Under the pieces are notes generated by a model that saw only the letters and a program-made list of their open reading frames with translations, was not told where the DNA came from and ran no database searches. From Patescibacteria group bacterium (lineage in GTDB: Bacteria; Patescibacteriota; Patescibacteriia; Patescibacteriales; JAQTRU01), in NCBI GenBank assembly GCA_028711655.1, contig JAQTRU010000001.1, forward strand, positions 6,648 to 70,647: DNA of 64,000 bases, written 5' to 3'. The position numbers were made by a program, and so were the translations under genes. Positions 6,825 through 50,903 of the stretch are shown here, in pieces. Within the stretch, counting starts at the first letter, position 1; each line of letters starts with the position of its first letter.

Positions 6825-6835
6825 TTAATTTAAAA

Positions 6836-6940
6836 ATAATAAAATAATAAAATAATATAAAAATTTAAGAGAAAAATCTATTATATAGATTTCTAGGTTA
6901 TTTTATTTCTATATTATTTTATTATTTTATTTCTACAACA
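6836..6940. repeat. Inverted arrays of the word aataaaat / attttatt flanking the lepB upstream region
   Basis: aataataaaataataaaataata ... tattattttattattttatttc. Confidence 0.7.
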
Positions 6941-6965: not shown

Positions 6966-8090
6966 TCAAATTTCGGGCCTACGCGGACTATCATAGATAA
7001 ACATCGCGTCTCCATAGCTATAAAACCGGTATTTCCTTTTTATGGCCTCACTATAAGCTTTATCAATATTTTTCTTTCCGGCCAAAGCGCAAACCAGCAT
7101 TAAAAGGGTGGATTTGGGCAGATGAAAATTGGTAATCAGGCCATCAACAATCTTAAATTTATAGCCAGGATAAATGAAAATATCCGTCCAACCGGAATAA
7201 TCGCGTATCGCATAACGCATATCGCATAACGAATTTGAAGTTTGTAATTTATTTGCGATATGCGATTTGCGACTAGCGATATGCGAAAAAATCGTTTCCA
7301 GCGCCCTCGCGCTCGTTGTCCCTACCGCTATCACTCTTCTGCCTTCAGATTTGGCCAAAAAAATTCTAGCGATAGTTTTTTTATCTACTTCCGCCCACTC
7401 CGCATGCATTTTGTGTTTTTTTATATTATTAACCTTAACGGGCGCAAAAGTTCCCAAGCCAACATGAAGAGTCACATATTCTATATGTACGCCTTTTTTC
7501 TCCAATTTCTTTAACAAGGCCGGGGTAAAATGAAAACCGGCGGTCGGGGCGGCTACGGATCCTGTTTTTTTTTCGCTGGCGTAAACCGTCTGATAATTCA
7601 TGTCGTCAGATTTCTGTTTTTTATCTCTTTTTATATAGGGAGGCAGGGGCATCAATCCGATTTTATTTACGATTTTTACAAATTCTTTTTTATTTTTATT
7701 AAATTTTAATTCCCAGGTTCCATTTTGATTATTTTTTATAATTTTAGCTTCCATTTTTTTCTTAAATTCAATTTCTAGACCGACTCTCGCTCCCCGCCCG
7801 CCGATCAAGCATTGCCAAATCGCCGACGAATTTTTTTTCAAAAGAAAAACCTCAATTTTTCCTCCCGTATCTTTTTTCCTTCCAAATAATCTCGCCGGCA
7901 TTACCTTGGAATTATTAAGGACGAGAACATCGCCTGGCCGAAAACAATCAACAATATTATAAAAATGGTCATGTTTTATTTCTCCTGTTTTTTTTGATAA
8001 TAAAAGAAGCCGCGAGCGGTCTCGCGGTTTAACAGGCTTTTGGGCAATTAAATTTTTCGGCAGAAGGTAGTCAAAATCTTTTAACTTCAT
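6966..8090 (-). CDS. queA: S-adenosylmethionine:tRNA ribosyltransferase-isomerase
   Basis: MKLKDFDYLLPKNLIAQKP ... GWTDIFIYPGYKFKIVDGLITNFHLPKSTLLML. Contains an in-frame palindromic insertion (see 7203-7290). Confidence 0.85.
   Translation of the reverse strand: MKLKDFDYLLPKNLIAQKPVKPRDRSRLLLLSKKTGEIKHDHFYNIVDCFRPGDVLVLNNSKVMPARLFGRKKDTGGKIEVFLLKKNSSAIWQCLIGGRGARVGLEIEFKKKMEAKIIKNNQNGTWELKFNKNKKEFVKIVNKIGLMPLPPYIKRDKKQKSDDMNYQTVYASEKKTGSVAAPTAGFHFTPALLKKLEKKGVHIEYVTLHVGLGTFAPVKVNNIKKHKMHAEWAEVDKKTIARIFLAKSEGRRVIAVGTTSARALETIFSHIASRKSHIANKLQTSNSLCDMRYAIRDYSGWTDIFIYPGYKFKIVDGLITNFHLPKSTLLMLVCALAGKKNIDKAYSEAIKRKYRFYSYGDAMFIYDSPRRPEI
7203..7290. repeat. Palindromic array of the cgcata word inside the queA coding sequence (in frame)
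   Basis: cgcgtatcgcataacgcatatcgcataacg-(loop)-gcgatatgcgatttgcgactagcgatatgcg, translated as ...SHIANKLQTSNSLCDMRYAIRD. Confidence 0.7.
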
Positions 8091-8091
8091 A

Positions 8092-8634
8092 TCAAATATG
8101 ATGAGCAACTTTACACTTTTCCACTAACTTAATAATAACATCCCTTACTTGATCCGGATTCGGAACCTCATGGAAAAAAAATCTTTCTTTAGCCCCGGCT
8201 GTTTGCACATAAACATTGCCGTATTTTAAAATAGTCGGGAAAAATCCCTTGGTTTCGCTGGTAACGTCCTGAACCCGGTCTAGTCTCTGTTCAGAAATTG
8301 TCCGGGCGAAAAACCCCTGTTGTTCTATATTAATAATTCTCTCGCTGGTTATTATCCAAATATCCAGATAATAATCAATAAAAGAAAAAAAGAAAAACAC
8401 CCAAAGAAATAGATAATAAAAGCTTACTATTAAAAGAAAAATGGGATGGGAAATCTGCCCATAAAGAATGTCCGGATAAATAGAAGTAACTACCAAATAA
8501 AAAAGTACCAAGGGCAGAACTAAGAGCAAAATAAAAAATAAAATTTTTTTTATAAGAATAAAAACATCCCGCCTTAGCACTTTTATAATTTTTTCATCGG
8601 GAAGTTTTCCCGGCAAACGGTAAAGTAAAAGCAT
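8092..8634 (-). CDS. Membrane protein with bacterial PH (bPH_2/YdbS-like) domain
   Basis: Two N-terminal TM helices, then a PH-like domain (ERIINIEQQGFFARTISEQRLDRVQDV). Confidence 0.55.
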   Translation of the reverse strand: MLLLYRLPGKLPDEKIIKVLRRDVFILIKKILFFILLLVLPLVLFYLVVTSIYPDILYGQISHPIFLLIVSFYYLFLWVFFFFSFIDYYLDIWIITSERIINIEQQGFFARTISEQRLDRVQDVTSETKGFFPTILKYGNVYVQTAGAKERFFFHEVPNPDQVRDVIIKLVEKCKVAHHI

Positions 8635-8641
8635 AGGCTAC

Positions 8642-8896
8642 TTAAAAAGAAAATTCTAAATCTAGCAAGTCCCCAAAAATAGTAACATTCATTTGCCAAT
8701 CAATTTGGCTCAAATATTTATAAGAAAATAAAAGCATAAGAATGGAAATGGCGATATAAATAAAAATCGTGAAAAAAGTGGTAAAATTTAAAAAGCCGTA
8801 TTTAAACATATGGTAAATCGCGATAAAACTAAATATCAGCCAGCCCAAAAGAAAGATAAGATAAATTATTAAAAAAATGTATAAAGGGAAAGTCAT
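8642..8896 (-). CDS. Small multi-TM membrane protein, hypothetical; likely start at MTFPLYIF
   Basis: The ORF N-terminus MKISNFITFNFITFNFITFN is a translation of the upstream tandem repeat. Confidence 0.4.
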   Translation of the reverse strand: MTFPLYIFLIIYLIFLLGWLIFSFIAIYHMFKYGFLNFTTFFTIFIYIAISILMLLFSYKYLSQIDWQMNVTIFGDLLDLEFSF

Positions 8897-8995
8897 ACGG
8901 GAGTTAAAAGTTATAAAGTTAAAAGTTATAAAGTTAAAAGTTATAAAGTTACTAATTTTCAAATACTTTATAACTTTATGGACTTTATAAACTTT
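8884..8995. repeat. Palindromic array of the word aagttataaagtt; same family as 36885-36962
   Basis: gttataaagttaaaag x3, then inverted ctttataactttatggactttataaacttt. Confidence 0.75.
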
Positions 8996-9023
8996 CCAAC
9001 TAATCTGCTAATTTAATATAACT

Positions 9024-10070
9024 CTAAATTTGTAAACTTACGGGATTATTTTCATCTCTATTCCGTTTTAAGTGCTTATAGCCGATGTCAGTAACGATCC
9101 GACCGCGCGGAGAACGGTCAATAAAACCCAACTGCATTAGATACGGCTCATAAATTTCTTCAATAGTCGCCATCTCCTCGCCGGTGGCCGCGGCAATAGC
9201 GTTTAGGCCTGCCGGCCCGCCGTTAAATTTATCAACTATCGTTTCTATAATTTTCCGGTCAATCCAGTCCAGGCCCAAATCATCAACGTCCAATATTTTA
9301 AAAGCTTCTTCGCAGATTCCATTCTCAACATCCCCGTTTCCTTTGACCTGGCAATAATCGCGGACTCTCTTTAATAACCGGTTGGCAATGCGGGGAGTGC
9401 GGCGAGAACGCCCGGCAATAACCTCCACCGCTTCCGGCTCTACTTTTACCCCCAGGATGTTGGCGCTCCGGCTGATAATTCTATTAATATCTTCCAGGCC
9501 GTAAAAATCAAGACGATAAGTAAGCCCGAAACGGTCGCGCAAAGGCGCGGATAATAAACTTACTTTAGTGGTGGCGCCGATTATGGTAAAACGCGGCAAG
9601 TCAATTCGCAAAGTCCTGGCGGACGGCCCTTTACCGATAATAATATCCAGAGCGTAGTCCTCCATGGCCGGATAAAGAATTTCTTCAATGGTTTTATTTA
9701 AACGGTGAATCTCGTCAATAAATAAAATGTCGCCTTCGCCCAAATTAGTTAAAATGGCAGCCAAATCGCCGCTTTTTTCAATGGCCGGCCCGGAAGTAAT
9801 TCTGATGTTGGCGCCCAACTCATTGGAAATCACATGCGCCAACGTTGTTTTTCCCAATCCGGCCGGGCCATGCAGGAGCACATGCTCAATCGGCTCTCCC
9901 CGGCCTTGCGCCGCGGCCATGGTAATTTTCAAGCTTTCCTTTATTTTATCCTGCCCCACATATTCGCCCAATCTTTTCGGCCGCAAAGTCAAATCCAGGG
10001 CATTATCATTGCCCAGTTCTTCTGGATTTATTATTCTATCATTTAAATTTTTAGTTTGTTTATCTGCCAT
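9024..10070 (-). CDS. ruvB: Holliday junction branch migration ATPase RuvB
   Basis: Walker A LLHGPAGLGKTTLA, Walker B IDEIHRL, and the RuvB C-terminal winged helix. Confidence 0.9.
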   Translation of the reverse strand: MADKQTKNLNDRIINPEELGNDNALDLTLRPKRLGEYVGQDKIKESLKITMAAAQGRGEPIEHVLLHGPAGLGKTTLAHVISNELGANIRITSGPAIEKSGDLAAILTNLGEGDILFIDEIHRLNKTIEEILYPAMEDYALDIIIGKGPSARTLRIDLPRFTIIGATTKVSLLSAPLRDRFGLTYRLDFYGLEDINRIISRSANILGVKVEPEAVEVIAGRSRRTPRIANRLLKRVRDYCQVKGNGDVENGICEEAFKILDVDDLGLDWIDRKIIETIVDKFNGGPAGLNAIAAATGEEMATIEEIYEPYLMQLGFIDRSPRGRIVTDIGYKHLKRNRDENNPVSLQI

Positions 10071-10073
10071 ATT

Positions 10074-10610
10074 TTATTTTTTAATCCTCGGAGATTTTTT
10101 TGCTTTTTTCACTATCTCCTTAATTAACTTTTCTTTCTTCGCTGTATAAATTTTTCTTGAGTTTTGATATTTTTTAGCTAATTTTTCTTTTAATTCGGAA
10201 TACTTTTCTGCTGCCCTCCTGTCTTCGCAAAGGTAATCTCTAAATAAAATCATATCTTCGATGTAACCACTGCCAACTTTCCCTATATGGAGATAGTGTG
10301 TCCGTTTCTTTTCCGGACCTTTTGTAAAAAATAATCTTTTTTTATTTGTATCGTCTTTCTTTATATTATACCCTATCTTTTTTAAGTTTTCCTCATAGCG
10401 CCCCACTTTGGTGATTGACGGAACAAGTAGAGCAATGTCAATTATTGGTTTGGCCACCATCCCCGGGACAGAAGTACTCCCAACATGTTGAATATCAAGC
10501 GCCTTTCTACTAAAAATCTTTTTTATCTTCTTTTTCTCGCGCTCAAAGCTTTGCGACCATTTTAAATTGTGAATAACTAATCTAACTGTTCCTCGTTTTA
10601 ACCCAATCAT
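10074..10610 (-). CDS. GrpB/UPF0157 family protein (nucleotidyltransferase-like)
   Basis: HVGSTSVPGMVAKPIIDI motif. Confidence 0.6.
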   Translation of the reverse strand: MIGLKRGTVRLVIHNLKWSQSFEREKKKIKKIFSRKALDIQHVGSTSVPGMVAKPIIDIALLVPSITKVGRYEENLKKIGYNIKKDDTNKKRLFFTKGPEKKRTHYLHIGKVGSGYIEDMILFRDYLCEDRRAAEKYSELKEKLAKKYQNSRKIYTAKKEKLIKEIVKKAKKSPRIKK

Positions 10611-10731
10611 AGATTTATTATTTTTTACATCTTGCCACGCCTTTTATACTTTAATCTTACCACTTTCTTTAAAATTCACAAATCTGCGTCATTCGCTATA
10701 TTCGCATAAATTCGCATCTATTAGCGTTATC

Positions 10732-11199
10732 TTAAAAATAAAACACTAAATACATAAACAGCAAAACCGCGTAGTTAAAAAGCATAAACCATTTATTTGA
10801 CCAGTTTATGCCGGAAAAATGGAAACGGGAAAATGGCCAAAGGATCGGGGTGGGGAAAAACTCCGAGGTATGGGTAAAAATATCTAAAAATATATGGAGC
10901 CCCCAGGCATAAAAAATAACCACGGCCAGATCTAAACCTAAAATTTTTAAAATTAAAAATATTGCCAGCCAAATTACTAAACTATGGGTAATGTCATAAA
11001 GTCTAAAAACATACTTCGGAATCCCTGATGGCATTGGCGCTTCAAAATGCAAGGTTCTCCTAAAAAAATTTCTAACGGTCATATAAGAAAAACTGATTAA
11101 ATCTGGGAACAACCCGAATAAAACCGCCACGCCCCTTTGCTCCATCGGCAGTTCTTTAAAAATTAAGTTTGTCCACAAAGCGTGGGAAAGTATATCCAT
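10732..11199 (-). CDS. Membrane-bound metal-dependent hydrolase (YdjM/DUF457-like); start at MDILSHALW
   Basis: MDILSHALWTNLIF ... HIFLDIFTHT. The first 38 codons of the ORF translate the attcgga repeat. Confidence 0.5.
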   Translation of the reverse strand: MDILSHALWTNLIFKELPMEQRGVAVLFGLFPDLISFSYMTVRNFFRRTLHFEAPMPSGIPKYVFRLYDITHSLVIWLAIFLILKILGLDLAVVIFYAWGLHIFLDIFTHTSEFFPTPILWPFSRFHFSGINWSNKWFMLFNYAVLLFMYLVFYF

Positions 11200-11214
11200 A
11201 AGATAATCCAAATC

Positions 11215-11290
11215 TACGAATTTATCCGAATGCCCCGAATGCTTTGATTTAGGAATTCGGAGCATTCGGATAAAATTCGGATTAATTCGG
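11215..11290. repeat. Palindromic array of the word attcgga/gaatgc
   Basis: ccgaatgctttgatttaggaattcggagcattcggataaaattcggattaattcggattacg; same word family as at 60530-60625. Confidence 0.7.
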
Positions 11291-11291
11291 A

Positions 11292-14200
11292 TTACGACTT
11301 CCTGAATTCGCAAATATCTTTAAAATCGCAAAACTGGCAAAGCGCGGAAGGCTTTGGCGGAAATTCGCCTTTTTTTATGGCGGCAATGGTGTTTATGATC
11401 TTTTCTTTTGTTTTGTCCAGCTCATCCTGGCTGCCCAGAAATTCAACTTCAGTATTGTTGTCCAAATAATAAAAGGCCAAAGAATCTACTTTTTGCCGAA
11501 AAAGCTCCTCGGCGGCCAACTGATAAATTAAAAGCTGATATTTTTCGTCAAGGCTTAATTTGTCTTTCGGGGTTCCGGTTTTATAGTCAATAATTTTTAT
11601 TTTGCCTGCCCCGTTGCTGCGGTGGCCGTTTATCTCATCAATCCTGTCCATTACCCCGCGCACGGTATAGAGCTCGTTGCCGACCCTGACCTTGGAATTA
11701 AATCCTTTTTCCAGAAAAATCACGTTCGGCCATGCATCTTGATGCTTTTCATAAAACTTCTTTAAAATTTCCTTGCCTTTCTTTTTATATTCCTCTTTCC
11801 GCGCCTTGGTCTCATACCAATCGTCAATCCAGCTCTGCTCGTATAATTTTAAAATTTCTTCCAAACTGATTTTAACATTTTTTTTGGCTGCTTGCGTTGA
11901 ACTTGCCGAAGCACCAAATAAATCCGTCTGCTCCCGCTTCTTTCTTTCCTCGATTAAACTGAATAATTTCTGCAAAGTAATGTGCAAGGTTTTGCCAAAA
12001 GAAAAAACATGTTTTCCCCGGACCGGAATTCTTAAAATATGGGCAAAACGGTATTGGTAAGGACAATTGGAAAACGCCGCCAATTGCGTATAAGAAAAAT
12101 AAGACGGCACCACCGACTTTACAACCTCTTTTGCCGGAACAGAAATTCTTGTCTTTAAAATATCGCCATCTTGTATTTTTGCCTGCCCCTCGAAGCCCTG
12201 GCGCAGTAGGGTGTTTTTGCCTGCCCCTCGAAGCCCTGGCGTAGCGGGGTATTTTTGTGTTTTTGTGTTTTCTTGAACAAACCCGCATTCCTCTAAAAAA
12301 CGAGAAGGTTTTTTGAGTCGAGCGCCGCCATAGTCAGCCGCCCAAGAAAAATATAAATCGTTTTTTGCCCGCGTCATGGCTACGTAAAACAATCTTCTTT
12401 CCTCTTCTAAATGGATATCGCCTTCCGGTAAAATTTCCTTGACTAAAGCGTCCGGAATGGCAATCTGCTCGCTTCTCTCAATCGTGGGAAAACGCTTATC
12501 AACTAAACCGGCAATAAAAACATACTTAAATTCCAATCCCTTGGCCCCGTGAACCGTCATTACTTTTATGGTTTCCGGACCGGCCTCCCAGTCAACCGGC
12601 ATCGCCCCTTCTTCCCCGGCGTCAATTTCCATCTGCAGTTGGGCCAAAAACGCTTTAACGCTTCTATCGTCACTGCCCTTTTCAAATTCCTCAACCCGCT
12701 TCATAAACTGGTTAAGACAGGAAGCCGCCTCCCGGCTTTTTTGCTCATCTTGGCTCATCAGATATTTCAAATAACCGCTGTCATTTAAAAAAACAAAAAT
12801 AATTTCACTGGCGTTTTTATCTCTGGCGAGGCCGGCATGCTTATCAATTAAAGATAAAACCGCGACCACTTTCTTCTGCAATTCCGGCCCCAGATTTAAA
12901 GCGGAGACATTGCGCAGAACTTCATAAAGCGACCAGGCTTTTTTATTGGCCCAATAATTAAAATTAACCAACTCGTTATAGGTAAACTTAAAAATCGGCA
13001 GGTTTAAAACGCGATAAGCCGCCGCGCTTTCATGGTAATCGTCCAATAATTTTAAATAAGCGATTATGTCCATTATTACCGGCTTGGCATAAAGGCCGCG
13101 GGAAGATAAAAATTGGTAGGGCAATTCGGCCGCGGCCAAAAATGAGCAAATTTCTTTCGCGCTTTCATTGGCTCTGACCAAAATCGCAAAATCGTCCCAA
13201 GTAGAATTTTTATCCTTAATTTTTAAATCCGCGATTTTCTCAATTACCATTCTTATCTCCTCATTCAAATCTTTGCCTTCTATAACTTCTATCACCCCCT
13301 CCCCCTTATTATCAGCTACCAGCTTTTTGCTTAATTCCGTTTTTGTGTTTCTGCTCGCCCCTCGAAGCTTTAGCGTAGTGGGGTGTTTTTGTGTTTTTGT
13401 GTTCAGTTGATACTCCAGCCGATTCGGGTCATTTTGCTTGATAAATTTATAAGACAAATTCAGAATATTCTGCTTATTGCGGTAATTATTGATTAAAAAA
13501 ATCTGCCCGGCCCGCGAATAATCTTTTTGAAACTGCAAAATATTAGATACCGAAGCCCCGCGAAATTTATAAATTGACTGGTCATCATCGCCAACGACCA
13601 CTAAGTTATTTTTCGGGGCGGCCAGCATTTTTATCAGCTCATACTGCGCCCAGTTAGTATCCTGAAATTCGTCCAGCAGTATATATTTAAATTTATCCCG
13701 ATATTTTTTTAAAATCGCCGGCCGGGCGCGGAATAATTTCAAGCAGTAGTTTATTAAATCTCCGAAATCCAAAGAGCTGCTGTCTAAAAGCAGTTGCTGG
13801 TAAACATGATAAGCGTTCGCCACTTCGTTTATCCTTGCCACTTCCTGACTTGCTATTTCTTTATTAAACTCACCTCTTTCTGTCATTGCGAGTCCCGAAG
13901 TCTCGGGACGAAGCAATCTCTGGTTAGACGCGCTTGACCGGAGATTGCCGCGTCGCTCGTTGCGCTTCGCTCCACTCGCTCCTCGCAATGACATATTAGG
14001 GGCTCCGCTCAACATATTGTCTAAATTTTCCTTCAACTCATTAGCGTATTCAAGATACTGGGCCGGATTTATATCCTCGTCTTTGGTCCGGGAAAAATGC
14101 TTTATCAAGGCGCGGATAAATTTCGTCGGATTGCCCATCGGCCGATAATAATCCAGATCAAGTTTATCCAAATTATTTTTTATTAGAGCATATTGTTCAA

Positions 14201-14567
14201 ACTCATTCAGCAATTTAAAATCATTAGGTAGCCCGATATCAAGGCCGTGTTCTTTCAAAATTCTTTCCCCAAAGCCGTGAAAAGTGGAAATCCATAAATC
14301 CAAATAGCCAATCGGCAACAACCGATCGACTCGTTCCTCCATTTCCCCGGCCGCTTTTTCCGTAAAAGTTAAAGCTAAAATTTCGTCTGATTTAGCCCAC
14401 CCCTGCTCTATCATATAGGCGATTCTTTGTGTAATAACCGTGGTTTTGCCAGTGCCAGCTCCGGCCACAATCAACAAAGGGCCGTCTTTATGTTGGACAG
14501 CCTGTAATTGTTCTTTATTCAAATTTTCCATCAAATTTTCCATATTATTATCATAGCTAATAATCAA
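11292..14567 (-). CDS. UvrD/PcrA-type helicase fused to a C-terminal Cas4/AddB-like PD-(D/E)xK nuclease with a Cys cluster
   Basis: N-terminus LLIVAGAGTGKTTVIT (Walker A), UvrD motifs, C-terminus ...CPYQYRF ... CQFCDFKDICEF. Four in-frame repeat insertions (see repeat features). Confidence 0.8.
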   Translation of the reverse strand: MIISYDNNMENLMENLNKEQLQAVQHKDGPLLIVAGAGTGKTTVITQRIAYMIEQGWAKSDEILALTFTEKAAGEMEERVDRLLPIGYLDLWISTFHGFGERILKEHGLDIGLPNDFKLLNEFEQYALIKNNLDKLDLDYYRPMGNPTKFIRALIKHFSRTKDEDINPAQYLEYANELKENLDNMLSGAPNMSLRGASGAKRNERRGNLRSSASNQRLLRPETSGLAMTERGEFNKEIASQEVARINEVANAYHVYQQLLLDSSSLDFGDLINYCLKLFRARPAILKKYRDKFKYILLDEFQDTNWAQYELIKMLAAPKNNLVVVGDDDQSIYKFRGASVSNILQFQKDYSRAGQIFLINNYRNKQNILNLSYKFIKQNDPNRLEYQLNTKTQKHPTTLKLRGASRNTKTELSKKLVADNKGEGVIEVIEGKDLNEEIRMVIEKIADLKIKDKNSTWDDFAILVRANESAKEICSFLAAAELPYQFLSSRGLYAKPVIMDIIAYLKLLDDYHESAAAYRVLNLPIFKFTYNELVNFNYWANKKAWSLYEVLRNVSALNLGPELQKKVVAVLSLIDKHAGLARDKNASEIIFVFLNDSGYLKYLMSQDEQKSREAASCLNQFMKRVEEFEKGSDDRSVKAFLAQLQMEIDAGEEGAMPVDWEAGPETIKVMTVHGAKGLEFKYVFIAGLVDKRFPTIERSEQIAIPDALVKEILPEGDIHLEEERRLFYVAMTRAKNDLYFSWAADYGGARLKKPSRFLEECGFVQENTKTQKYPATPGLRGAGKNTLLRQGFEGQAKIQDGDILKTRISVPAKEVVKSVVPSYFSYTQLAAFSNCPYQYRFAHILRIPVRGKHVFSFGKTLHITLQKLFSLIEERKKREQTDLFGASASSTQAAKKNVKISLEEILKLYEQSWIDDWYETKARKEEYKKKGKEILKKFYEKHQDAWPNVIFLEKGFNSKVRVGNELYTVRGVMDRIDEINGHRSNGAGKIKIIDYKTGTPKDKLSLDEKYQLLIYQLAAEELFRQKVDSLAFYYLDNNTEVEFLGSQDELDKTKEKIINTIAAIKKGEFPPKPSALCQFCDFKDICEFRKS
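12180..12268. repeat. Tandem duplicate of a ~44-bp GC-rich element inside the helicase CDS
   Basis: ttttgcctgcccctcgaagccctggcg(c/t)ag(t/c)gggt(g/a)ttttt x2. The two copies are read in different frames (KNTLLRQGFEGQAK vs KYPATPGLRGAGKNT). Confidence 0.75.
13340..13410. repeat. Third copy of the same element inside the helicase CDS
   Basis: ctcgcccctcgaagctttagcgtagtggggtgtttttgtgtttttgtgtt, encoding NTKTQKHPTTLKLRGASRNTKTE. Confidence 0.7.
13862..13992. repeat. GC-rich inverted-repeat insertion (gtcattgcgag...ctcgcaatgac) inside the helicase CDS
   Basis: The arms gtcattgcgag / ctcgcaatgac flank ~100 nt of GC-rich sequence with internal hairpin tcccgaagtctcggga. The 5' end resembles the element at 48194. 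Confidence 0.6.
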
Positions 14568-14599
14568 TAAATCGGCAAATCAAAAACCTGACTAATCAT

Positions 14600-14930
14600 C
14601 GCTTATTTTCTATTATAAAAATAATCCCTTGCCAAAGGGAAAAGCGCGCCAAGACTGACCGAAAAACATTTTTCGGAAAAAGTTTCCTCGGCGCAGGTGG
14701 AAAAACATCAAAAAGGAGTTTTCGCCATGAAACGCTCCTTTGCCACCAACAACTCGTCCTAAATGTGCCCGATGCCAGGCGACTTAGGTCTCGCGAGGTT
14801 CTCTCTACCTGAATCGCAACCCTTCGCCTAGGGTCAAAAATTGGTGGGGTAAAAACGAGAGAGGGACAAAAGAGTTGTTGGTTAAAAGAGGTAAACGGGA
14901 TGAATCCTTGTGGTTCATCCCTATTTTTTT
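14600..14930 (+). ncRNA. Candidate small transcript or structured RNA on the plus strand, with an 11-codon ORF (MKRSFATNNSS, 14727-14762) and intrinsic terminator 14897-14930
   Basis: GC-rich island between divergently oriented ackA and helicase. Several hairpins; AAAGGAG SD before the ATG; terminator gggatgaatccttgtggttcatccc+T7 on the plus strand. Confidence 0.3.
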
Positions 14931-14941
14931 ATAACAAAATA

Positions 14942-14967
14942 AAGGCGAGACTCGCTGATCTCGCCTT
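14942..14967 (-). terminator. ackA terminator
   Basis: aaggcgagactcgctgatctcgcctt, followed on the minus strand by T-rich sequence. Confidence 0.6.
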
Positions 14968-14981
14968 CTTTGTTTTAATTC

Positions 14982-16184
14982 TTATCCCTCCTGCCCGCTA
15001 ACCACCCTGACCGTCTCTCTGGCCACGATTATTTCCTCATTGGTTTCGAGGACAACGGCTTTGATGGACGAGCAAGGATCGCTTATAATCTGCTCATCTC
15101 TCATATTCGCTACATCGTCAAGGACAAAGCCGAGGAATCCGAGCGAACCAAGAACTTCAGCCCGAAGTGTCGGCTCTTTCTGCCCTATCCCGCCGGAAAA
15201 GCAAATTGCATCCACGCCGCCCATGAGAAGAATATAGGCGCCCATATAGAACTTGATGTCGTAGATGAGCTTAGCGCGGGCAAGTCGGCAGCGTTCGGCC
15301 AACGGGCCGCCTTTTTCTATCTCGTGGAGGATGTCCCGCATATCACCGGACGTTCCAGAAAGCCCTTTCAAGCCACCGTTGGTGGCAAGTTCGCGAAATA
15401 CTTCTTCCATTGAGAGGCCGGTTTTTCCCATAATAAATGGAATGGCAAAAGCGTCAATATCGCCAACTCGTGCCCCCTGGATAAGACCGGATTGCGGAGT
15501 CAGACCCATGGAAGTGTCAATGGAACGCCCGTCCTTATATGCGCAAACTGATGAAGAGCCGCCCAAATGGCAGGCAATGATTTTGTGAAATTTCTGATCA
15601 AGCCCGAGAATCTGAATGGTTTCGCCGGTCACGAACCGCAAGGAAGCGCCATGATAGCCGTATTTGAGAAGCCCGTACTTTTCGTACCATTCATAAGGAA
15701 CGCCATAAACACTGGCATACTCCGGCTTCCCGGTGTGAAACCCCGGCTCAAAAACTCCGACCCGCGGCGTATCCGGCAAAAGCTTGGCAAACATCCGAAT
15801 CGCTTGAAGGTACGGCGGATTGTGCGCCGGCGCCAAATCACTGTACTCTTCCATGGCGCAAAGAACATCATCGGTCAAAAACACTGACCCGTTCTTTTCT
15901 CCGGCCTGGACCGTCTTGAACCCAACAGCCTCAATCTCGGAAAGACCCGAGACTGCGCCTTCTAAGAAATCAAGGCAATTTTGGACAGCCTCACATTGAG
16001 TCGGAACATATTCCGATCTCTCAATTGCCGGCACTTTTCTATCGCCCCTGTAGAATTTTATCGTGGAGTCGCGATAACCAACCCGCTCAATGCCGCCCCG
16101 GGCAAGGACTTTTTCCCCGTTACCCATGTCAAGAAGCTGAAACTTGAACGACGTAGACCCGATGTTGCAGACTAAAACTTTCAT
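14982..16184 (-). CDS. ackA: Acetate kinase
   Basis: MKVLVCNIGSTSFKFQL with SD AAGGAG. Acetate/propionate kinase motifs. Higher GC than neighbouring genes. Confidence 0.85.
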   Translation of the reverse strand: MKVLVCNIGSTSFKFQLLDMGNGEKVLARGGIERVGYRDSTIKFYRGDRKVPAIERSEYVPTQCEAVQNCLDFLEGAVSGLSEIEAVGFKTVQAGEKNGSVFLTDDVLCAMEEYSDLAPAHNPPYLQAIRMFAKLLPDTPRVGVFEPGFHTGKPEYASVYGVPYEWYEKYGLLKYGYHGASLRFVTGETIQILGLDQKFHKIIACHLGGSSSVCAYKDGRSIDTSMGLTPQSGLIQGARVGDIDAFAIPFIMGKTGLSMEEVFRELATNGGLKGLSGTSGDMRDILHEIEKGGPLAERCRLARAKLIYDIKFYMGAYILLMGGVDAICFSGGIGQKEPTLRAEVLGSLGFLGFVLDDVANMRDEQIISDPCSSIKAVVLETNEEIIVARETVRVVSGQEG

Positions 16185-16314
16185 AGCTCTCTCCTTGTAA
16201 AATGTGATGTGAAATGTGCGAAAAAACAACTTTAAAAATAATATAACTAAATAGCGTTAATATCAATCAGTTAATGTCAATCTAATTCGTTCAATTTCGT
16301 CCCGTTCGTGTATG

Positions 16315-17577
16315 TTAAAACTTCAAAATCTTCTCAAACTTTTTTTTGTCTTTAAATGGTCCGATTATTGCTAAATTCAATTTATTATTTGTAAAAATTT
16401 CACCGGCCAATTTTTTCATGTCGCCTGCTTTCACCAAATCTATTTTTCTGAAAAAATCTTCAGGAGATAAAGTTTTTCCGCCTAAAATTAAATGCTCCAT
16501 ATACCAGCTGGCCATATCATCAGACGCTTCCAGTCTTATCACCGAACGGCCGCGAATCAAATCTTTGGTTCTTTTTAATTCTTGGCCGCCCACCAAAATC
16601 TTCGTTAGCTTTTTATATTCGGATAAAATTATTTTTATGGCCTCTTCAATTTTGTCAACCGGAACGCCGGCCTGCGTAGTCAGATAACCGCTATCGGTAT
16701 AAAATTCGGATTGAGTCCTTACATAATAAGCCAAACCCTTTTTCTCTCTTAATTCCGTAAATAAGCGAGAGCTCATGGAGCCGCCGAGAATCGTAGACAT
16801 TACTTTCAAAATAAATTCTTTTTTATGGCCGAACGGTAGCGCCCTCACTCCCAGGGAAATAGTCGCCTGGTTTGTTTTTTTGTAGTGGATTTTAATCTGC
16901 GGTTTTATCTGATTTTCTATTACTTTAACTTTATCCTGAAAGTCATTTTTTCTTAATCCGGAGAAATACCGGCTAACCGCTTTTTCCGAATTATTTTTTA
17001 TATTCCCAGCCAAACAAACAATCGCGCTCTCCGTGCCGTATTGGGAATTAAAATAATTGATAAAATCTTTTCGGGAAAAATTCAAAACATTTTCTTTGCG
17101 GCCGCTTACATACCAGCCGGCCGGCGCATCTCCGTAGAGGCATTCTTCAAAAACATCTTCAATATGAATCAAGGGGTTGTCGGTTCTCATATTTATTTCT
17201 TCCACAATTACGCCTTTCTCCCTCCCTATCTCTTTTGCGTCAAATTTGGAGTTAAGAAGCATGTCGCTTACAATATCAACCGCCAATTCTATTTTTGAAC
17301 TATCTACTTTCACGAAATAACCCGTATATTCTTTGGAAGTAAAGGCGTTAAATTCCGCGCCTATGCTGTCCAGTCCTCCCGCGATCGCCAAAGCTGTCGG
17401 CCTCTTCTTTGTGCCTTTAAAAAACATATGCTCCAAAAAATGAGAAATGCCGTTATTTTTTTTATTCTCATATTTCGAGCCGGTTTTAAGCATCACTAAA
17501 ATCGTTATGGTCTTTGTCCCGGTCATCGGCACGGTAATAAGTTTCAGCCCGTTTTTTAATTTTTTTTGTTTAAACAT
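16315..17577 (-). CDS. M16-family (insulinase/pitrilysin-like) zinc peptidase
   Basis: Inverted zinc motif HFLEH; start probably MFKQKKLKNGLKLITVP. Confidence 0.8.
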   Translation of the reverse strand: MFKQKKLKNGLKLITVPMTGTKTITILVMLKTGSKYENKKNNGISHFLEHMFFKGTKKRPTALAIAGGLDSIGAEFNAFTSKEYTGYFVKVDSSKIELAVDIVSDMLLNSKFDAKEIGREKGVIVEEINMRTDNPLIHIEDVFEECLYGDAPAGWYVSGRKENVLNFSRKDFINYFNSQYGTESAIVCLAGNIKNNSEKAVSRYFSGLRKNDFQDKVKVIENQIKPQIKIHYKKTNQATISLGVRALPFGHKKEFILKVMSTILGGSMSSRLFTELREKKGLAYYVRTQSEFYTDSGYLTTQAGVPVDKIEEAIKIILSEYKKLTKILVGGQELKRTKDLIRGRSVIRLEASDDMASWYMEHLILGGKTLSPEDFFRKIDLVKAGDMKKLAGEIFTNNKLNLAIIGPFKDKKKFEKILKF

Positions 17578-17584
17578 AATATTT

Positions 17585-17680
17585 CTTACCCACAAATCTA
17601 CAAACAATTTGACAAATGTACAAATATTATCCCTCCGTATTTGTAAATTTGTATTGGATTTGGAGATTTGTGGGAGCTAT
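17585..17680. repeat. Palindromic array of the acaaat / atttgt word directly upstream of the M16 peptidase start
   Basis: caaatctacaaacaatttgacaaatgtacaaatatta ... tttgtaaatttgtattggatttggagatttgtggg. Confidence 0.7.
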
Positions 17681-17691
17681 ACAACTAGCAT

Positions 17692-19065
17692 TTAGAAATC
17701 TTCTAAACCATCTCTCACCACCATACCAACAACAAACCAAGAAAACAAGACTCCAAAATGCAAACTCCAATACCAATGGTCAACCATCATTATTATAACT
17801 AAGCTAGCGAGAATAGACAAACCAAAATATTTTTTATTTTTTATTAAATTCCATCCCAAAAATCCTAAGAGTCCCAAAAATCCCAATAATCCTACCACCC
17901 CCACTTCCGCCCAAACCAATAAAAATACATTATGGACCGGCTGATAATTCCAGCTCTCCTGACCCGGTTTCATTTCCTTTAAAGCCAAGGTGTAATTTCC
18001 CATCCCGGCGCCAAATAACCAATTATTTTTTATTAACTCTTTAGCATCAACTAAAGACTCCTTTCTTTCCGTATTAGATTTAACTTCCAGTCTCGTATCT
18101 TTAGATAACCGCGTTAAAACTAAATTATTGTAAAAATTAAATAAAATAAAAACTAAAATCCCGGCCGCCAAAATTATTTTCAACAGTTCCCTCTGCTTTA
18201 AATAATCTTTCTTTATTAAAAATATAACCAGCATCAATAAAATTCCGACTATAACTCCGGCCCAAGCTCCGCGGGAAAAAGTGAAAAACAGCGCTAATAA
18301 AAATAATAAAATAATAAAATAATAAAATAACTTAAACCTTGTTTGAAAATTTAGAAATTTAAAATTGTTTGAAAATTGAAAATTGCCAGCCAGCGGCTGG
18401 TCCGCCTCTGGCGGAAAAATTGAAAATTTATTAACTAAAAAACAAATTACTATCAATACGCCCGCAACTAAAATCCCTCCCAAAACATTCGGATGATCCA
18501 ATCCCCCATAAGCCCGAAGCCACCTTTCGCCAATCCCATCAGCGCCAATTGTTTCCACAACCGAAACCCCGAGTTCAGCCGGATTATGCATCGCCATTCC
18601 CAACCACTTAGAGGCAAAACTTGATTGGGATAAAAATTGGTAAATCCCCAAACCGGCTTGAAAAAAAATTCCCGCCAACAAGCTCCACAACAATTTCATT
18701 CTGTTATAATTCGCGCTCGTCACGAGCCAAAACAATCCCACCCCCAATAAAAACCAACCGTATTTATACAAGGCCAGCCATTTGTCAGAAGCAGAAAATA
18801 TAGAAATAAAAATAAATAAATCCAAAACCGCTATCACCCACCAAATTTTTGAAAATTTAGAAATTGAAAATTGTTTGAAAATTGAAAATTGAAAATTGAA
18901 AATTACGAATAATAATAGGAGCGCCAGCAAAATTATATCTACCCCATACAAACTATACGTCGCATATTCCGTCTCTCCGGCCCTGATAATCCACCTCGTC
19001 TGCCAAGGCAGTAAGAAAATTAATAAATACAAACCATATTTAATTATTTTTTCCAGTATTGTCAT
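17692..19065 (-). CDS. O-antigen ligase/polymerase (Wzy_C-like) polytopic membrane protein
   Basis: More than 10 TM segments and a large periplasmic loop with WLRAYGGLDHPNVLGGILVAG. Carries two in-frame word-repeat insertions. Confidence 0.55.
   Translation of the reverse strand: MTILEKIIKYGLYLLIFLLPWQTRWIIRAGETEYATYSLYGVDIILLALLLLFVIFNFQFSIFKQFSISKFSKIWWVIAVLDLFIFISIFSASDKWLALYKYGWFLLGVGLFWLVTSANYNRMKLLWSLLAGIFFQAGLGIYQFLSQSSFASKWLGMAMHNPAELGVSVVETIGADGIGERWLRAYGGLDHPNVLGGILVAGVLIVICFLVNKFSIFPPEADQPLAGNFQFSNNFKFLNFQTRFKLFYYFIILLFLLALFFTFSRGAWAGVIVGILLMLVIFLIKKDYLKQRELLKIILAAGILVFILFNFYNNLVLTRLSKDTRLEVKSNTERKESLVDAKELIKNNWLFGAGMGNYTLALKEMKPGQESWNYQPVHNVFLLVWAEVGVVGLLGFLGLLGFLGWNLIKNKKYFGLSILASLVIIMMVDHWYWSLHFGVLFSWFVVGMVVRDGLEDF
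18290..18420. repeat. Intergenic-type cassette inside the CDS: aataaaat array, gaaaatt array and GATCCGCCTCTGGCGG hairpin
   Basis: aataataaaataataaaataataaaataa ... gtttgaaaatttagaaatttaaaattgtttgaaaattgaaaatt gccagccagcggctggtccgcctctggcgg. Confidence 0.7.
18838..18905. repeat. gaaaatt tandem array inside the CDS
   Basis: ttgaaaatttagaaattgaaaattgtttgaaaattgaaaattgaaaattgaaaattacg. Confidence 0.7.
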
Positions 19066-20033
19066 AAAGCAGTTTTTAGTTTTTCACTTTTCGCTTTTAG
19101 TTTTTCTTTGTATTCCTCTCTTCTGTCATTAACATGAAGTTTTATTATTCTGCCATCAACCACTACCCGGCTGTCTATATTCATAATATCTTTTATTTGT
19201 CTCGGCATTATTTCCAGTTGGATCTCTTTAATTCTTCTTTCCAGCCCGCCCAAAAGCATATCAGCCACGTTGCGGTAAAATCGAGAAAAACTTTTGCCGG
19301 CATCCCGCCTATAATTAATTCCCCCGGCTTCCCAATTAGACAAATAATTTTTTAGCCAGCCATTGGCTTTAATAAATTTATTATAAATATTATCTCTATT
19401 ATAAACCGGCGCTAATCCGGCCAGCCAATAGATAAAATAAATATCTCGCCCGCCCCCCAGCATTAATTTTTCCAGATTCATGGCTTCTTCGCTTATAAAA
19501 AAACTTAAGCAAATTTTATCTTTCATGTTTTTCGGTTTCGGCCGCAGGCCCAATATTTTTATAATTAAAACGCAAAAAAATCTCGTTAGCCAAACCCTCC
19601 CATCTTCCGTGATAATAAATAAATCAATATCGCTTTCCTTTTTTAGATTATGCGCCCCGATTATATTTCCAACCGCGATCATTTTTATCCAAGGAATAAA
19701 TTTGAAAATTTTAGCCAGCCAAACCGCCCGCTTGAATTTCTTATCCGTATAATTATATCTTGCCATCCTTTGCCTTATAATTTCTTCTCGGCCGGCTAAA
19801 AAATAAAAACGATTCTTTTCTCCTATGCCCAAAAGGGGTTCAACCCCCAATTTGGGGGTTGAACCCCTTCGCTCTACTAAAACTTCTAAAACTTCACTCA
19901 ACTCGCACTTTACACCCGTATATTTCCAAACCTCAAATCCGGTTAGCGGGTAAGAGAACAAGTCAAAAAAAGCAATTGTCTCCACAATTGCCTCCTCGAG
20001 TTCCGCTTGTTTTTTTGCGTAATCAATTCCCAT
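19062..20033 (-). CDS. Hypothetical protein, possible nucleotidyltransferase fold
   Basis: ESDIDLFIITEDG resembles an NTase hG[GS]...DxD motif. Contains the palindrome insertion at 19835-19867. Confidence 0.35.
   Translation of the reverse strand: MGIDYAKKQAELEEAIVETIAFFDLFSYPLTGFEVWKYTGVKCELSEVLEVLVERRGSTPKLGVEPLLGIGEKNRFYFLAGREEIIRQRMARYNYTDKKFKRAVWLAKIFKFIPWIKMIAVGNIIGAHNLKKESDIDLFIITEDGRVWLTRFFCVLIIKILGLRPKPKNMKDKICLSFFISEEAMNLEKLMLGGGRDIYFIYWLAGLAPVYNRDNIYNKFIKANGWLKNYLSNWEAGGINYRRDAGKSFSRFYRNVADMLLGGLERRIKEIQLEIMPRQIKDIMNIDSRVVVDGRIIKLHVNDRREEYKEKLKAKSEKLKTAL
19835..19867. repeat. Perfect 15-bp-arm palindrome inside the CDS
   Basis: GGGGTTCAACCCCCAATTTGGGGGTTGAACCCC, translated ...PKLGVEPLLGIGE. 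Confidence 0.8.
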
Positions 20034-20037
20034 ATCC

Positions 20038-21129
20038 TTATTCCATTTTGGGTTTATCTAGCGCCATCGGCTCAATTTTTGATTCGCCCTCGGTAATTTT
20101 TATCACGTCTTTATCCATTTTTTTAAATTCTTTGTAGGCATTATTATAATGATTAACAGTGGTGGACATGCTAATGCCCAATTTTTTCATAAAGTCATCA
20201 TAGCTTAAAAGGTGACGGCCCAATTTTTCCACGTTAATTTTGATCGCCTTGGCGCTTTCTTCAATCTGCAAAGCCCGCAAGCCCTGAAGAACAGTTTGCA
20301 GATAAGCTAAAAATGAAGTTGGAGAAACAATAATCACGTGTTTGTCGCGAAAAGCGTATTCTATCAAATCTCTGGTATTTACCTGAACAGCGCCGACTTT
20401 ATTTATAAGCAGATCATAATAAATCGCTTCGCTGGGAATAAACATAAAAGCAAAATCCATAGTTTTTTCCGCCGGCTTTACATATTTAGAAGTTTCATCA
20501 ATTCTATTTTTCAAATCTTGTTTGAATTGCTTTTCCAGTTTTTCTTTTGTGCCCGCATCAGAGCAATTTAATATTTTTTCATAATTTTCCAAAGAAAATT
20601 TGGAATCAACCGGAATAATTTTGTCTTTCACAAACACGACGGCGTCAACAATGCTCCCGTCTTTGAAAGGATATTGCATCTGATAAGAATTCGGGGGTAA
20701 AACATTTCTCAAAGTTTCTTCCAAAAAATATTCACCCAAAACTCCGCGCTGTTTCGGATTTTTTAAAATATCCTGCAGATTCTGAAGCTGGGCCGAAAAA
20801 TTTACTACTTGCTTATTGGTCTCATCCAATTTGGTCAATCTCTCGGTCACATCGCTAATCAGTTTGGCCGACTGCCCGGTTATGCCCTGAATAATTTTAG
20901 TGGCTTGGCCGAATTGCTCCTGCGTCGCCCGATGGGTTTCCGACAGCTTGCCGTCCATAGCTTGGCGCAATTCTTTGTTTTGCTCCGCTAGCTGGGACAG
21001 TTTTTCCATCATCGTAATCAGTTTCTCTCCATCTCCGTTTTCTGTTTTTTTCCGCAATAAAAGAAAGATAATGGCAATTACCCCGAGAATCAAAAGAATT
21101 AATAAAAATGTCATTAACTGGTTCGGCAT
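20038..21129 (-). CDS. rmuC: DNA recombination protein RmuC
   Basis: N-terminal TM helix, long coiled coil, and the RmuC C-terminal domain (DFAFMFIPSEAIYYDLL). Confidence 0.75.
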   Translation of the reverse strand: MPNQLMTFLLILLILGVIAIIFLLLRKKTENGDGEKLITMMEKLSQLAEQNKELRQAMDGKLSETHRATQEQFGQATKIIQGITGQSAKLISDVTERLTKLDETNKQVVNFSAQLQNLQDILKNPKQRGVLGEYFLEETLRNVLPPNSYQMQYPFKDGSIVDAVVFVKDKIIPVDSKFSLENYEKILNCSDAGTKEKLEKQFKQDLKNRIDETSKYVKPAEKTMDFAFMFIPSEAIYYDLLINKVGAVQVNTRDLIEYAFRDKHVIIVSPTSFLAYLQTVLQGLRALQIEESAKAIKINVEKLGRHLLSYDDFMKKLGISMSTTVNHYNNAYKEFKKMDKDVIKITEGESKIEPMALDKPKME

Positions 21130-26722: not shown

Positions 26723-26989
26723 CGATTTAATCCTGTCGTCCTCGGACGACGGGGCAAGGATAACGAAATTTACCCGGGGCAACCCGGGTCTCAAATAGAA
26801 GTTAAAAGCTTCAACAGGGAAGAAAACCTGTTTAAAAACTTTCTCTTGGATAGTAAACCAAGTAAAAAACTTTAAGAGAGTTTTCAGCCAGAGGCTGATC
26901 CGCCTTTGGCGGAGATCCTGGCCTGCCCGCAAGGGCAGGTTAAAACTGGAGTACTGAAAACTTTCCTTGGATAGTAAACCAAGTAAAAA

Positions 26990-28603
<1,614 letters not shown>

Positions 28604-28718
28604 TCTAGGGAGATATTCGGTGAAAAAAACGAATGTGTCGACCTACTTAAATTTTTATAAAATCTAGGTGGGAAATTGGCGCCTGCTAGCTTTGAAATTT
28701 TGATCATCAAATAAAAAA

Positions 28719-33458: not shown

Positions 33459-33464
33459 CCAAGT

Positions 33465-33600
33465 TTTAAATTATCAATTATCAATTTTCTAATTTTCAAT
33501 CAATTACCAATTAACAAATTTTCAATTGATAATTTAATTATTGAAAATTCATTAATAATTGAGACTTGAAAATTGAAAATTTTATCTCGTCCTTATCCAT
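33465..33600. repeat. Palindromic array of the tcaatt / gaaaatt words between the paralogs
   Basis: ttatcaattatcaattttctaattttcaatcaattaccaatt ... ttgaaaattcattaataattgagacttgaaaattgaaaatttta. Confidence 0.7.
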
Positions 33601-36884: not shown

Positions 36885-36962
36885 CTAGTAGAAAGTTATA
36901 AAGTTGAAAGTTATAAAGTCTTACTTTCAACTTTATAAACTTTATAACTTTATGAACTTATT
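36885..36962. repeat. aagttataaagtt palindromic element between rny and ymdB
   Basis: gaaagttataaagttgaaagttataaagtcttactttcaactttataaactttataactttatg overlapping the ymdB start. Confidence 0.75.
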
Positions 36963-44494: not shown

Positions 44495-44551
44495 AATTTT
44501 ATGGTTAAGTGTATAAGTGCTAATATTATATCAAATTTATTATACCAAATT

Positions 44552-49825: not shown

Positions 49826-49930
49826 ATTTATTACAAATACACAAATATTATCACAAATAACACAAATAAAAAAAGATGCTGTATAAAATTTGTGAATTTG
49901 CGTTTTGATTTGTGAATTTGTAATTATATT
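49826..49930. repeat. acaaata / tttgtga palindromic array ending 3 nt before the folD ATG
   Basis: ttacaaatacacaaatattatcacaaataacacaaataaa ... tttgtgaatttgcgttttgatttgtgaatttgtaatt. Confidence 0.75.
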
Positions 49931-49932
49931 TT

Positions 49933-50802: not shown

Positions 50803-50903
50803 CTTAAATAATAAAATATTAAAATAATATGAAAATAAAATAAAAAGATAAGAAGTGCTATTTTTAAATTATTTTATTATTTTTTTATTTTATTTTTAAA
50901 ACC

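Follow-up and report, generated by a model that had tools for sequence, protein, structure and literature searches.

How can repeat and palindrome DNA lie inside open reading frames (ORFs) without breaking them, and does selection there act on the nucleic acid or on the peptide? The present analysis takes up this question for a 64,000-bp stretch from a Patescibacteria group bacterium (contig JAQTRU010000001.1, positions 6,648 to 70,647; hereafter the window), in which four minus-strand genes, for QueA, a UvrD-type helicase, an O-antigen-ligase-like membrane protein (Wzy) and an uncharacterised protein, carry short repeats in frame. [quoted passage not shown] The inserts are lineage-specific and lie in positions predicted to be disordered, one site that is filled in the window is empty in two relatives, copies are dispersed into intergenic DNA, rRNA and other genes and are read in several frames, and what is conserved is the type of structure. 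The segments are probably non-autonomous, REP/MITE-like selfish DNA together with products of replication slippage, filtered for an open frame and a tolerant loop. The phenomenon is the counterpart, in the candidate phyla radiation (CPR), of Rickettsia palindromic elements (RPEs) and intragenic REPs.

Host genes and their inserts

The four host genes remain uninterrupted through all of the repeats listed below, as had been claimed, and these repeats occur far beyond chance expectation.

6966-8090, minus strand: queA, 374 aa from its ATG; Pfam Queuosine_synth over 1-322 of 322 positions, E 2e-136
11292-14543, minus strand: UvrD-type helicase fused to a PD-(D/E)XK nuclease, 1083 aa; Pfam UvrD-helicase, UvrD_C and PDDEXK_1, alignment with PcrA, 100% match to a protein of an NCBI Patescibacteria metagenome-assembled genome
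17692-19065, minus strand: Wzy_C/O-antigen-ligase-like membrane protein, 457 aa; Pfam Wzy_C, orthologs are single ORFs of about 450 aa
19062-20033, minus strand: uncharacterised host gene, 323 aa; no Pfam family, 78% identical to its ortholog in L001

The earlier note had labelled the last of these NTase-like, for which Pfam gives no support. Each gene was compared with 107-120 orthologs (109 for the helicase, 120 for queA) and with one syntenic relative available as two independent assemblies from different pipelines, L001 and L002; site-by-site DNA comparisons use L001. This relative has the gene order of the window, and its four proteins are 72-84% identical to those of the window at the amino acid level. 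The window helicase and QueA are 100% identical to NCBI proteins labelled "Patescibacteria group bacterium", with best relatives that are Falkowbacteria-like, and GC content across the window is about 0.31-0.53. The earlier note had proposed an alignment to orthologs as a check, and this placed the segments in loops as lineage-specific additions, with no homologous peptides at these positions in the orthologs. There are at least five element types: a 113-bp inverted-repeat element, a 30-bp double hairpin, a 35-bp palindrome, a 38-bp GC-rich unit, and arrays of AT-rich 7-9-bp words. The features, with z-scores for DNA folding against shuffled sequences (200 shuffles for the queA palindrome), are as follows.

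7197-7286, minus strand: word palindrome in queA; inverted repeat, Tandem Repeats Finder period 7/14, z = -3.3, about 22-27 extra residues (aa 269-295)
12173-12271, minus strand: helicase site C; two tandem 38-bp GC-rich units (12173-12210 and 12211-12248), then gtgttttt words; AlphaFold2 (AF2) confidence (pLDDT) <50 at aa 760-807
13345-13410, minus strand: helicase site B; third GC-rich unit with aacacaaa words on either side; AF2 pLDDT <50 at aa 376-404
13881-13993, minus strand: helicase site A; 113-bp MITE-like element with internal hairpins, z = -4.8; AF2 pLDDT <50 at aa 180-223
17853-17892, minus strand: ATCCCAAAA word array in frame in the Wzy gene (GLLGFLGLLGFLG), exceeding that of the relative by two words (18 bp)
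18343-18430, minus strand: gaaaatt word array in the Wzy gene, read as NFQFS..., carrying the 30-bp core; array common to L001 and P0241
18386-18415, minus strand: 30-bp double hairpin core, gene strand TCCGCCAGAGGCGGA CCAGCCGCTGGCTGG, peptide PPEADQPLAG, z = -3.8
18843-18904, minus strand: second gaaaatt array in the Wzy gene (VIFNFQFSIFKQFSISKF), lying in a hotspot between transmembrane segments; read the other way round, all three frames contain stops
19833-19869, minus strand: perfect 18+1+18 palindrome (the ~35-bp one) in the uncharacterised gene, AAGGGGTTCAACCCCCAA-A-TTGGGGGTTGAACCCCTT, encoding RGSTPKLGVEPL, z = -6.5
26885-26914, plus strand: intergenic copy of the 30-bp double hairpin, in reverse orientation, upstream of the 16S rRNA gene; near-identical to 18386-18415

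Insertion sites in the helicase

Alignment of the helicase orthologs showed three insertion sites, A in domain 1B, B at the start of domain 2B and C in the linker to the nuclease, at which minimal orthologs have short loops that are often Lys-rich. The long stretches with pLDDT <50 in the AF2 model coincide with these three sites and no others and are predicted as coil, and alignments to PDB structures (for QueA and for PcrA) also put the inserts in loops. Three copies of a ~44-bp element had been reported in this gene; the copies are present, starting at 12173, 12211 and 13345 (three matches to a 19-nt core against 0.02 expected), but the unit is 38 bp and is not a significant hairpin (z about 0 to -1.4). 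The idea that the 38/44-bp unit is a palindrome was rejected, folding being no better than that of shuffles; GTAG is present within the unit, though not at a stem foot. Because the tandem units are 38 bp apart and 38 mod 3 is 2, they are read in different frames, one as KYPATPGLRGAGKNT and the other as LLRQGFEGQAK, which agrees with what had been claimed for them, and the third unit (13345) is read in the same frame as copy 2.

The relative differs at each site. At site C it has merely a 20-bp remnant of the GC-rich unit. At site B both genomes have the arrangement [word]n-core-[word], built on aacacaaa in the window and on aagtcaaa in L001, and at site A the 113-bp inverted-repeat element of the window is replaced by a different element. 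Across the orthologs the insert families include SLRGA..RRGNL..LAMT, NFQFSISNFQ, KSQKSKVKS, NTKTQKHKNTKT, NSKSQIPNPKQI and PPEADQPLAE, and there are also VIPAKAGIQ, CHSRENGNPE and SFPRRRESR, which, judged by the peptides, look like alternative frames of a single DNA element. The nearest neighbour in the alignment of the helicase core shared the class of site-A insert in 38 of the 109 orthologs, against 21.6 by chance, and therefore the inserts turn over much faster than the gene.

About ten helicase orthologs (P0003, P0019, P0020 and P0036 among them) are about 1400 aa long with intein domains PF14890 and PF01079, so that in some lineages the helicase is also a target of true inteins. There was no intein or Hint Pfam domain in the window helicase.

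The 113-bp inverted-repeat element

An inverted-repeat island of 130 bp had been described at site A. An inverted-repeat element does lie there, with a size of 113 bp, perfect 12-bp terminal inverted repeats (TGTCATTGCGAG / CTCGCAATGACA) and the encoded peptide MSLRGASGAKRNERRGNLR...SGLAMT. The same element occupies site A of the helicase in L126, L127 and L128 and has intergenic copies in L001 and L127, and a copy at site B of the L127 helicase uses a second reading frame. Other phyla have nested forms of it and a canonical form that is simpler. Identity between the window and L126/L127 amounts to 84-85% for the element and to 65-66% for the helicase genes. The differences in the element are spread over the three codon positions (5:5:7, 9:9:8 and 7:6:10) and clustered in predicted loops, with stems kept or compensated.

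In two relatives a PF05635 gene stands next to the helicase on the side of the M16 peptidase, between the two, and is enclosed by inverted word arrays (L126 2045-2500, L128 5300-6115), and in L128 it lies also inside outer inverted repeats (GTCATTGCGGGCTTGACCCGCAATCC). PF05635 is the intervening-sequence protein of 23S rRNA, a four-helix bundle, and the arrangement is an architecture like that of rRNA intervening sequences (IVSs) outside rRNA. This gene was the only cargo in the related inverted-repeat shells of L126 and L128, and no transposase was seen there.

The 30-bp double hairpin in the Wzy gene and elsewhere

The Wzy sites, like the hotspots of queA and the helicase, carry unrelated repeat peptides across orthologs. 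A complete intergenic-type cassette had been proposed at 18290-18420, and gaaaatt words do flank a 30-bp double hairpin in this interval; the TAATAAAA array at 18291-18330 is not an insertion, because the transmembrane helix that it encodes is also present in orthologs. The second array, placed by the earlier note at 18838-18905, was recovered at nearly the same position. At the second Wzy site L001 has the same caatttt array minus exactly 30 bp (TCCGCCAGAGGCGGACCAGCCGCTGGCTGG), i.e. an empty site at the DNA level, and P0241, whose Wzy protein is 78% identical, also is without the core at the protein level, which is a second empty site. The best match to the window Wzy protein in the protein collection was 78%, with none at 100%, unlike the helicase and QueA, and it may be that the gene (17692-19065) was called or flagged differently in the source record.

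The consensus of the core is TCCGCC-nnA-GGCGGA followed by YCAGCC-nnT-GGCTGR, two tandem non-identical hairpins. It is found with hardly any change in at least 120 contigs (loci L003-L122 and L130-L134) from Patescibacteria, Ignavibacteria, Bacteroidota, Omnitrophota, Planctomycetota, Elusimicrobia, Lentisphaerae, Leptospira, Bdellovibrionota and uncultured Gammaproteobacteria. Genes that contain it include those for MiaA, DnaJ, TopA, TsaD, HisRS, FAD-oxidase, CCG and RNase R; it lies there in either orientation and is read in several frames, none of its six frames having a stop. Positions 16 and 30 covary strictly (T-A 90, C-G 33, T-G 3, and no other combination), and there is a subfamily with a right extension, AGATATT. 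In the flanks, position -2 is a conserved T and position +2 a purine. The association of the GC modules with the word arrays is strong: the two flanks of the core have a direct repeat of at least 7 nt in common in 33% of copies (4.4% in re-paired controls), and an inverted repeat in 14% (6% in controls). Where direct repeats were found next to elements, these were pre-existing word arrays. The core occurs in direct-repeat arrays, in the loops of other hairpins and beside tRNA genes. Intergenic copies of the 44-bp element had been suggested as something to look for; in the window this unit (38/44 bp) is confined to the helicase, and it is the 30-bp core that has an intergenic copy (26885-26914).

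Viral carriage of the core was considered and set aside: a search of 2.9 million viral contigs gave only five hits, and the main home of the core is therefore not in phages. PF05635 genes adjoin or lie near the core in 5 of 120 loci and none in the window, which is a lead and not a finding. The core is often beside tRNA genes, inside a partial duplicate of a tRNA 5' end at the D-loop position (L058, L084, L093, L096, L105, L113 and others). Splitting of tRNA genes by the core was rejected, as ARAGORN calls the neighbouring tRNAs intact, plus partial tRNA duplications; the latter look like a by-product of insertion or of template switching.

Palindromes in queA and in the uncharacterised gene

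The palindrome reported in queA is present, with arms at 7200-7226 and 7254-7280 that are 81% complementary, and none of the 200 shuffles folded as well. Its left arm consists of 7-bp words of the atcgcaa/atcgcat type and its right arm of their complement. The encoded residues stand where QueA of T. maritima has a 5-residue loop (PDB 1vky and 1yy3 align on either side), and have AF2 pLDDT of 55-72. Among the QueA orthologs this loop ranges from a few to more than 40 residues, with many unrelated repeat-derived peptides, and the window and L001 each have a different insert, L001 having an additional 54-bp insert elsewhere in the gene. Complementary arms are kept in the window, L124 and L125. 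In L123 the word of one arm is changed in all copies and the other arm is not, and both arm complementarity and fold are lost. Compensatory evolution, or strict structural selection on this hairpin, was rejected on the basis of L123, in which the same word change in every copy of the arm indicates concerted evolution.

The perfect palindrome that had been located at 19835-19867 was recovered with slightly wider limits and folds strongly. L001 is without it at this site. The queA loop of L129 has the palindrome too, altered symmetrically (T>C / A>G), and as a peptide it appears in several further QueA orthologs. Template-switch correction can yield symmetric changes in DNA palindromes, and template switching can also create and perfect palindromes. 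Because of such correction, we do not read the symmetric changes as proof of function.

Reading frames and constraint

The reading frame appears to act as a filter on what persists in genes. The AT-rich arrays inside genes were found in their open orientation only, the opposite orientation being stopped in all three frames, while GC cores are open in five or six frames, and in seven of 25 selected intergenic arrays and palindromes none of the six frames is free of stops. Arrays differ in length by whole words, with totals divisible by three (18 bp as 2 x 9, 21 bp as 3 x 7), and the copy number of word-array units differs between close relatives, as in coding minisatellites, this comparison applying to the word arrays only. 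The stop-free orientation and the kept frames therefore fit inserts that are translated and not spliced out.

The earlier note had further proposed that selection acts on the DNA or RNA element and not on the peptide. The even distribution of substitutions over codon positions, the kept stems, the higher identity of the 113-bp element than of its host gene and the covariation in the 30-bp core support a constraint that would lie on the nucleic acid, with the peptide itself probably unconstrained; strictness of the hairpin did not hold, as the L123 queA demonstrates, and hairpin conservation is not absolute. The gaaaatt array, for its part, folds no better than shuffles. No Rfam family was found for any element, either in a gathering-threshold scan of the whole window or in a permissive scan of 7000-20200, and the only Rfam hit near the elements was conserved helicase coding sequence.

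Other repeats and genes in the window

A large share of the spacers between long ORFs holds a tandem array or palindrome, each of its own 7-10-bp word (ttataaag, attcgga, tttgtaa, gaaaatt, aataaaat and others). Examples are 10-136, 2276-2454, 6826-6935, 8902-8995, 11221-11294 and 17590-17680, and further along 33464-33581, 36887-36959, 49828-49931, 50771-50900, 59334-59391 and 62056-62152. The 16S rRNA gene (26991-28604) has 97 nt at the tip of helix 6 (V1; 27070-27170), where the bacterial consensus has 3, and this insert is a word hairpin (gcggactaat x2.5 / tccgtataag x3.4), DNA of the kind that occurs in the genes and spacers.

Two further genes contain repeats in frame. A surface protein with T4SS-pilin and Big_5 matches (ORF 140-2131) has a perfect 24-bp tandem duplication at 1706-1759 (GGPSGGAG GGPSGGAG), and an ELP3-like radical SAM/GNAT gene (44501-46150) has arrays at 45074-45106 and 45755-45831, the first made of AAAAATA words (NKNKKLKIKNKK...) and the second a GC palindrome (ggcctccggagg); in its Radical_SAM match about 150 profile positions correspond to 205 residues. 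An acetate kinase gene (14982-16229) has a GC content of 0.52 against about 0.40 around it and no counterpart in the syntenic L001 and L129. Beside it a 400-bp non-coding stretch (14570-14980) with GC-rich pairings is also missing from L001 and L129 and has no Rfam match at gathering score. The region 14570-16229 may be a recent acquisition.

Origin of the inserts

If the segments are selfish DNA, as we consider probable, two processes would be at work. The GC-rich hairpin modules (113-bp element, 30-bp core, ~35-bp palindrome and 38-bp unit) would be copied to new places in the manner of REPs or MITEs, while the AT-rich arrays of 7-9-bp words would be born, lengthened, shortened and homogenised in place by replication slippage, often acting as, or going with, landing sites for the GC modules. 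Insertions would land everywhere, and those that survive in genes would be the ones that keep the frame, lack stops and fall in tolerant loops or linkers, to be transcribed and translated as passenger loops that are presumably present in the mature protein. Such a filter would leave few hotspots per protein and would let one DNA unit be read in different frames with the peptide unconstrained. As for how the copying is done, a hairpin transposase acting on single strands, of the IS200/RAYT type (RAYT, REP-associated tyrosine transposase), would be compatible with the clean insertion and with a 5' flank rich in T.

Several observations weigh against this account. Pfam scans of selected window ORFs identified no transposase or other mobilising gene, and none was identified in the relative loci. 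There was no target-site duplication flanking the 113-bp element, nor any target duplication at the insertion of the 30-bp core, which is clean relative to L001. Only the 30-bp core and the word arrays occur at more than one locus within the 64 kb; the three copies of the 38-bp unit are all in the helicase, and none of the 113-bp element, the ~35-bp palindrome and the 38-bp unit is dispersed to another locus here, so that their status as repeats comes from relatives. The symmetric palindrome changes could arise by template-switch correction with no need of selection or mobility, and the greater conservation of the 113-bp element relative to its host gene could mean function.

One alternative is that these are functional nucleic-acid elements whose structure is useful in DNA or mRNA, be it for processing (by RNase III, for example), for pausing translation while domains fold, as an antisense terminator or for the binding of a conserved protein. 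This would account for a 113-bp element that keeps its stems and changes less than the gene around it, for the strict base-pair covariation and cross-phylum conservation of the 30-bp core, for hotspots that lie between folded domains, for PF05635 genes that are bordered by related inverted word arrays in the manner of classical rRNA intervening sequences, and for the hairpin in the 16S gene. It is harder to reconcile with the erratic presence of the elements, closest relatives having other elements or none at a site, with the loss of the queA hairpin in L123, with the failure of two element types (the 38-bp unit and the gaaaatt array) to fold better than shuffles, and with the lack of any matching Rfam family, and overall we regard it as rather improbable. 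Improbable to us also is a purely local origin in which no element moves, all segments are low-complexity tracts, and slippage and template switching act in A/T-rich loops coding for Lys and Asn. The whole-word array differences between relatives, the concerted change of the L123 arm word and the K-rich hotspot loops of minimal orthologs speak for such an origin, and it is established that template switching can make and perfect palindromes, but complex GC-rich modules (30-bp, ~35-bp and 113-bp) recur near-identically across unrelated loci, genes and genomes, and the 30-bp core differs between relatives as a clean presence or absence, so that dispersed polymorphic copies are partly demonstrated for that core.

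Another possibility, which we think very unlikely, is that flexible or charged protein spacers have been selected as adaptive linkers and that the repetitiveness of the DNA is incidental. The insertions are indeed always in loops or linkers and most helicase orthologs have one at site A; however, the same DNA in different frames gives unrelated peptides, substitutions are without third-codon-position bias, some orthologs have no insert, and rRNA and non-coding DNA contain the same sequences. No more credible, to our minds, are the alternatives of the earlier note, small self-splicing or excised elements and an assembly artefact, or more broadly any loss of the segments ahead of or in the course of translation, as mini-introns or by bypassing. 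The one point in favour is a general one, that CPR rRNA genes contain many introns and intervening sequences (PMC11270868). Removal is contradicted by inserts that are in every case in frame and stop-free, by AT-rich arrays that occur only the open way round and by the absence of a match to any Rfam intron model. An artefact is contradicted by repeats that are shorter than a sequencing read, by recurrence of the same classes of insertion in hundreds of independent assemblies and by L001 and L002, which, from different pipelines, each encode an identical helicase with matching neighbouring gene calls.

Within the selfish-DNA explanation, a more specific idea concerns the 30-bp double hairpin, which could be an undescribed, phylum-spanning mobile module with dedicated conserved machinery, possibly linked to PF05635, that targets hairpin tips and AT-rich tracts in DNA coding for protein and for rRNA alike. 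We put this forward tentatively and think it unlikely as it stands. If true, CPR genomes would be shaped by nested "hairpin-in-hairpin" insertion, which would explain rRNA intervening sequences as well. The hairpin pair is a tractable handle on the copying and horizontal spread of REP-like elements.

The selfish-DNA explanation, if correct, has several implications. Very small CPR genomes would tolerate, and continually exchange, selfish repeats in essential genes, including those for a repair helicase, tRNA-modification enzymes and a cell-envelope enzyme. Peptides derived from repeats (SLRGA...LAMT, NFQFS, PPEADQPLA, VIPAKAGIQ) inflate protein lengths, seed spurious homology between unrelated proteins and create false "hypothetical proteins". 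The hotspots amount to a natural insertion mutagenesis, marking loops that can be extended by 20-60 residues without loss of the gene.

Comparison with known systems

The earlier note considered it unusual that ORFs tolerate insertions of this kind, which is too strong, as both in-frame RPEs and intragenic REPs have been published (PMC10969869, PMC3733652). RPEs, as described in the review PMC10969869 (after Ogata et al. 2000), are palindromic selfish repeats lying in frame in housekeeping genes, and the likeness, as far as that description goes, is close: short palindromic selfish repeats in frame in unrelated housekeeping genes, translated and compatible with the fold, and present in non-coding DNA as well. 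The sequences and the phylum differ, the present ones being from Patescibacteria. Here, moreover, a single gene combines several families, more than one frame is used for the units, the GC modules come together with AT-rich word arrays, and one hotspot holds different families in different relatives.

Intragenic REPs (Di Nocera et al. 2013, PMC3733652) carry GTAG/CGTC tags and occur in UvrD/Rep helicases, uvrA/B, recB, tRNA synthetases and tRNA-modifying enzymes, with different REPs at about the same recB site in two Xanthomonas species. They share with the present elements the form of 20-40-bp GC-rich hairpins, single or as a dimer, within ORFs and sometimes at the same site in related species. 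The GTAG/CGTC tag was looked for on the 30-bp core and the ~35-bp palindrome and not found there, no RAYT gene was seen in the selected window ORFs that were scanned, and the 30-bp pair consists of two tandem non-identical hairpins across many phyla, not a species-specific family. Intragenic MITEs, which PMC10969869 also reviews, resemble the 113-bp element, which likewise ends in terminal inverted repeats, encodes nothing itself, has dispersed copies and forms in-frame fusions. This element differs from them in having no target-site duplication and no matching autonomous insertion sequence that we could find, and in that the related inverted-repeat shell in relatives encloses the PF05635 four-helix-bundle gene and not a known transposase.

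The rRNA genes of CPR bacteria carry insertion sequences, including short ones like intervening sequences and PF05635 ORFs (PMC11270868). These too are hairpin insertions at helix tips, sometimes with a 23S_rRNA_IVP (PF05635) ORF, and the 97-nt hairpin at helix 6 of the window 16S gene is comparable. They are, however, in rRNA genes and are removed by RNase III, whereas the present inserts are in protein-coding genes and must be translated. Palindromic amphipathic repeat coding elements (PARCELs), likened here by description, are also coding repeats with dyad symmetry in the DNA and apparently horizontal spread, and differ in being tandem protein domains of 25 residues that belong to surface proteins, whereas the present inserts are short and lie in housekeeping enzymes. 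We found no paper on these elements in CPR protein-coding genes, on the 30-bp motif or on the characteristic peptides. The phenomenon itself is thus already known, from Rickettsia and from REP elements, and what is described here is a new and unusually rich example of it, noteworthy for its scale and for the turnover at its hotspots, in which the cross-phylum 30-bp hairpin pair may merit a study of its own.

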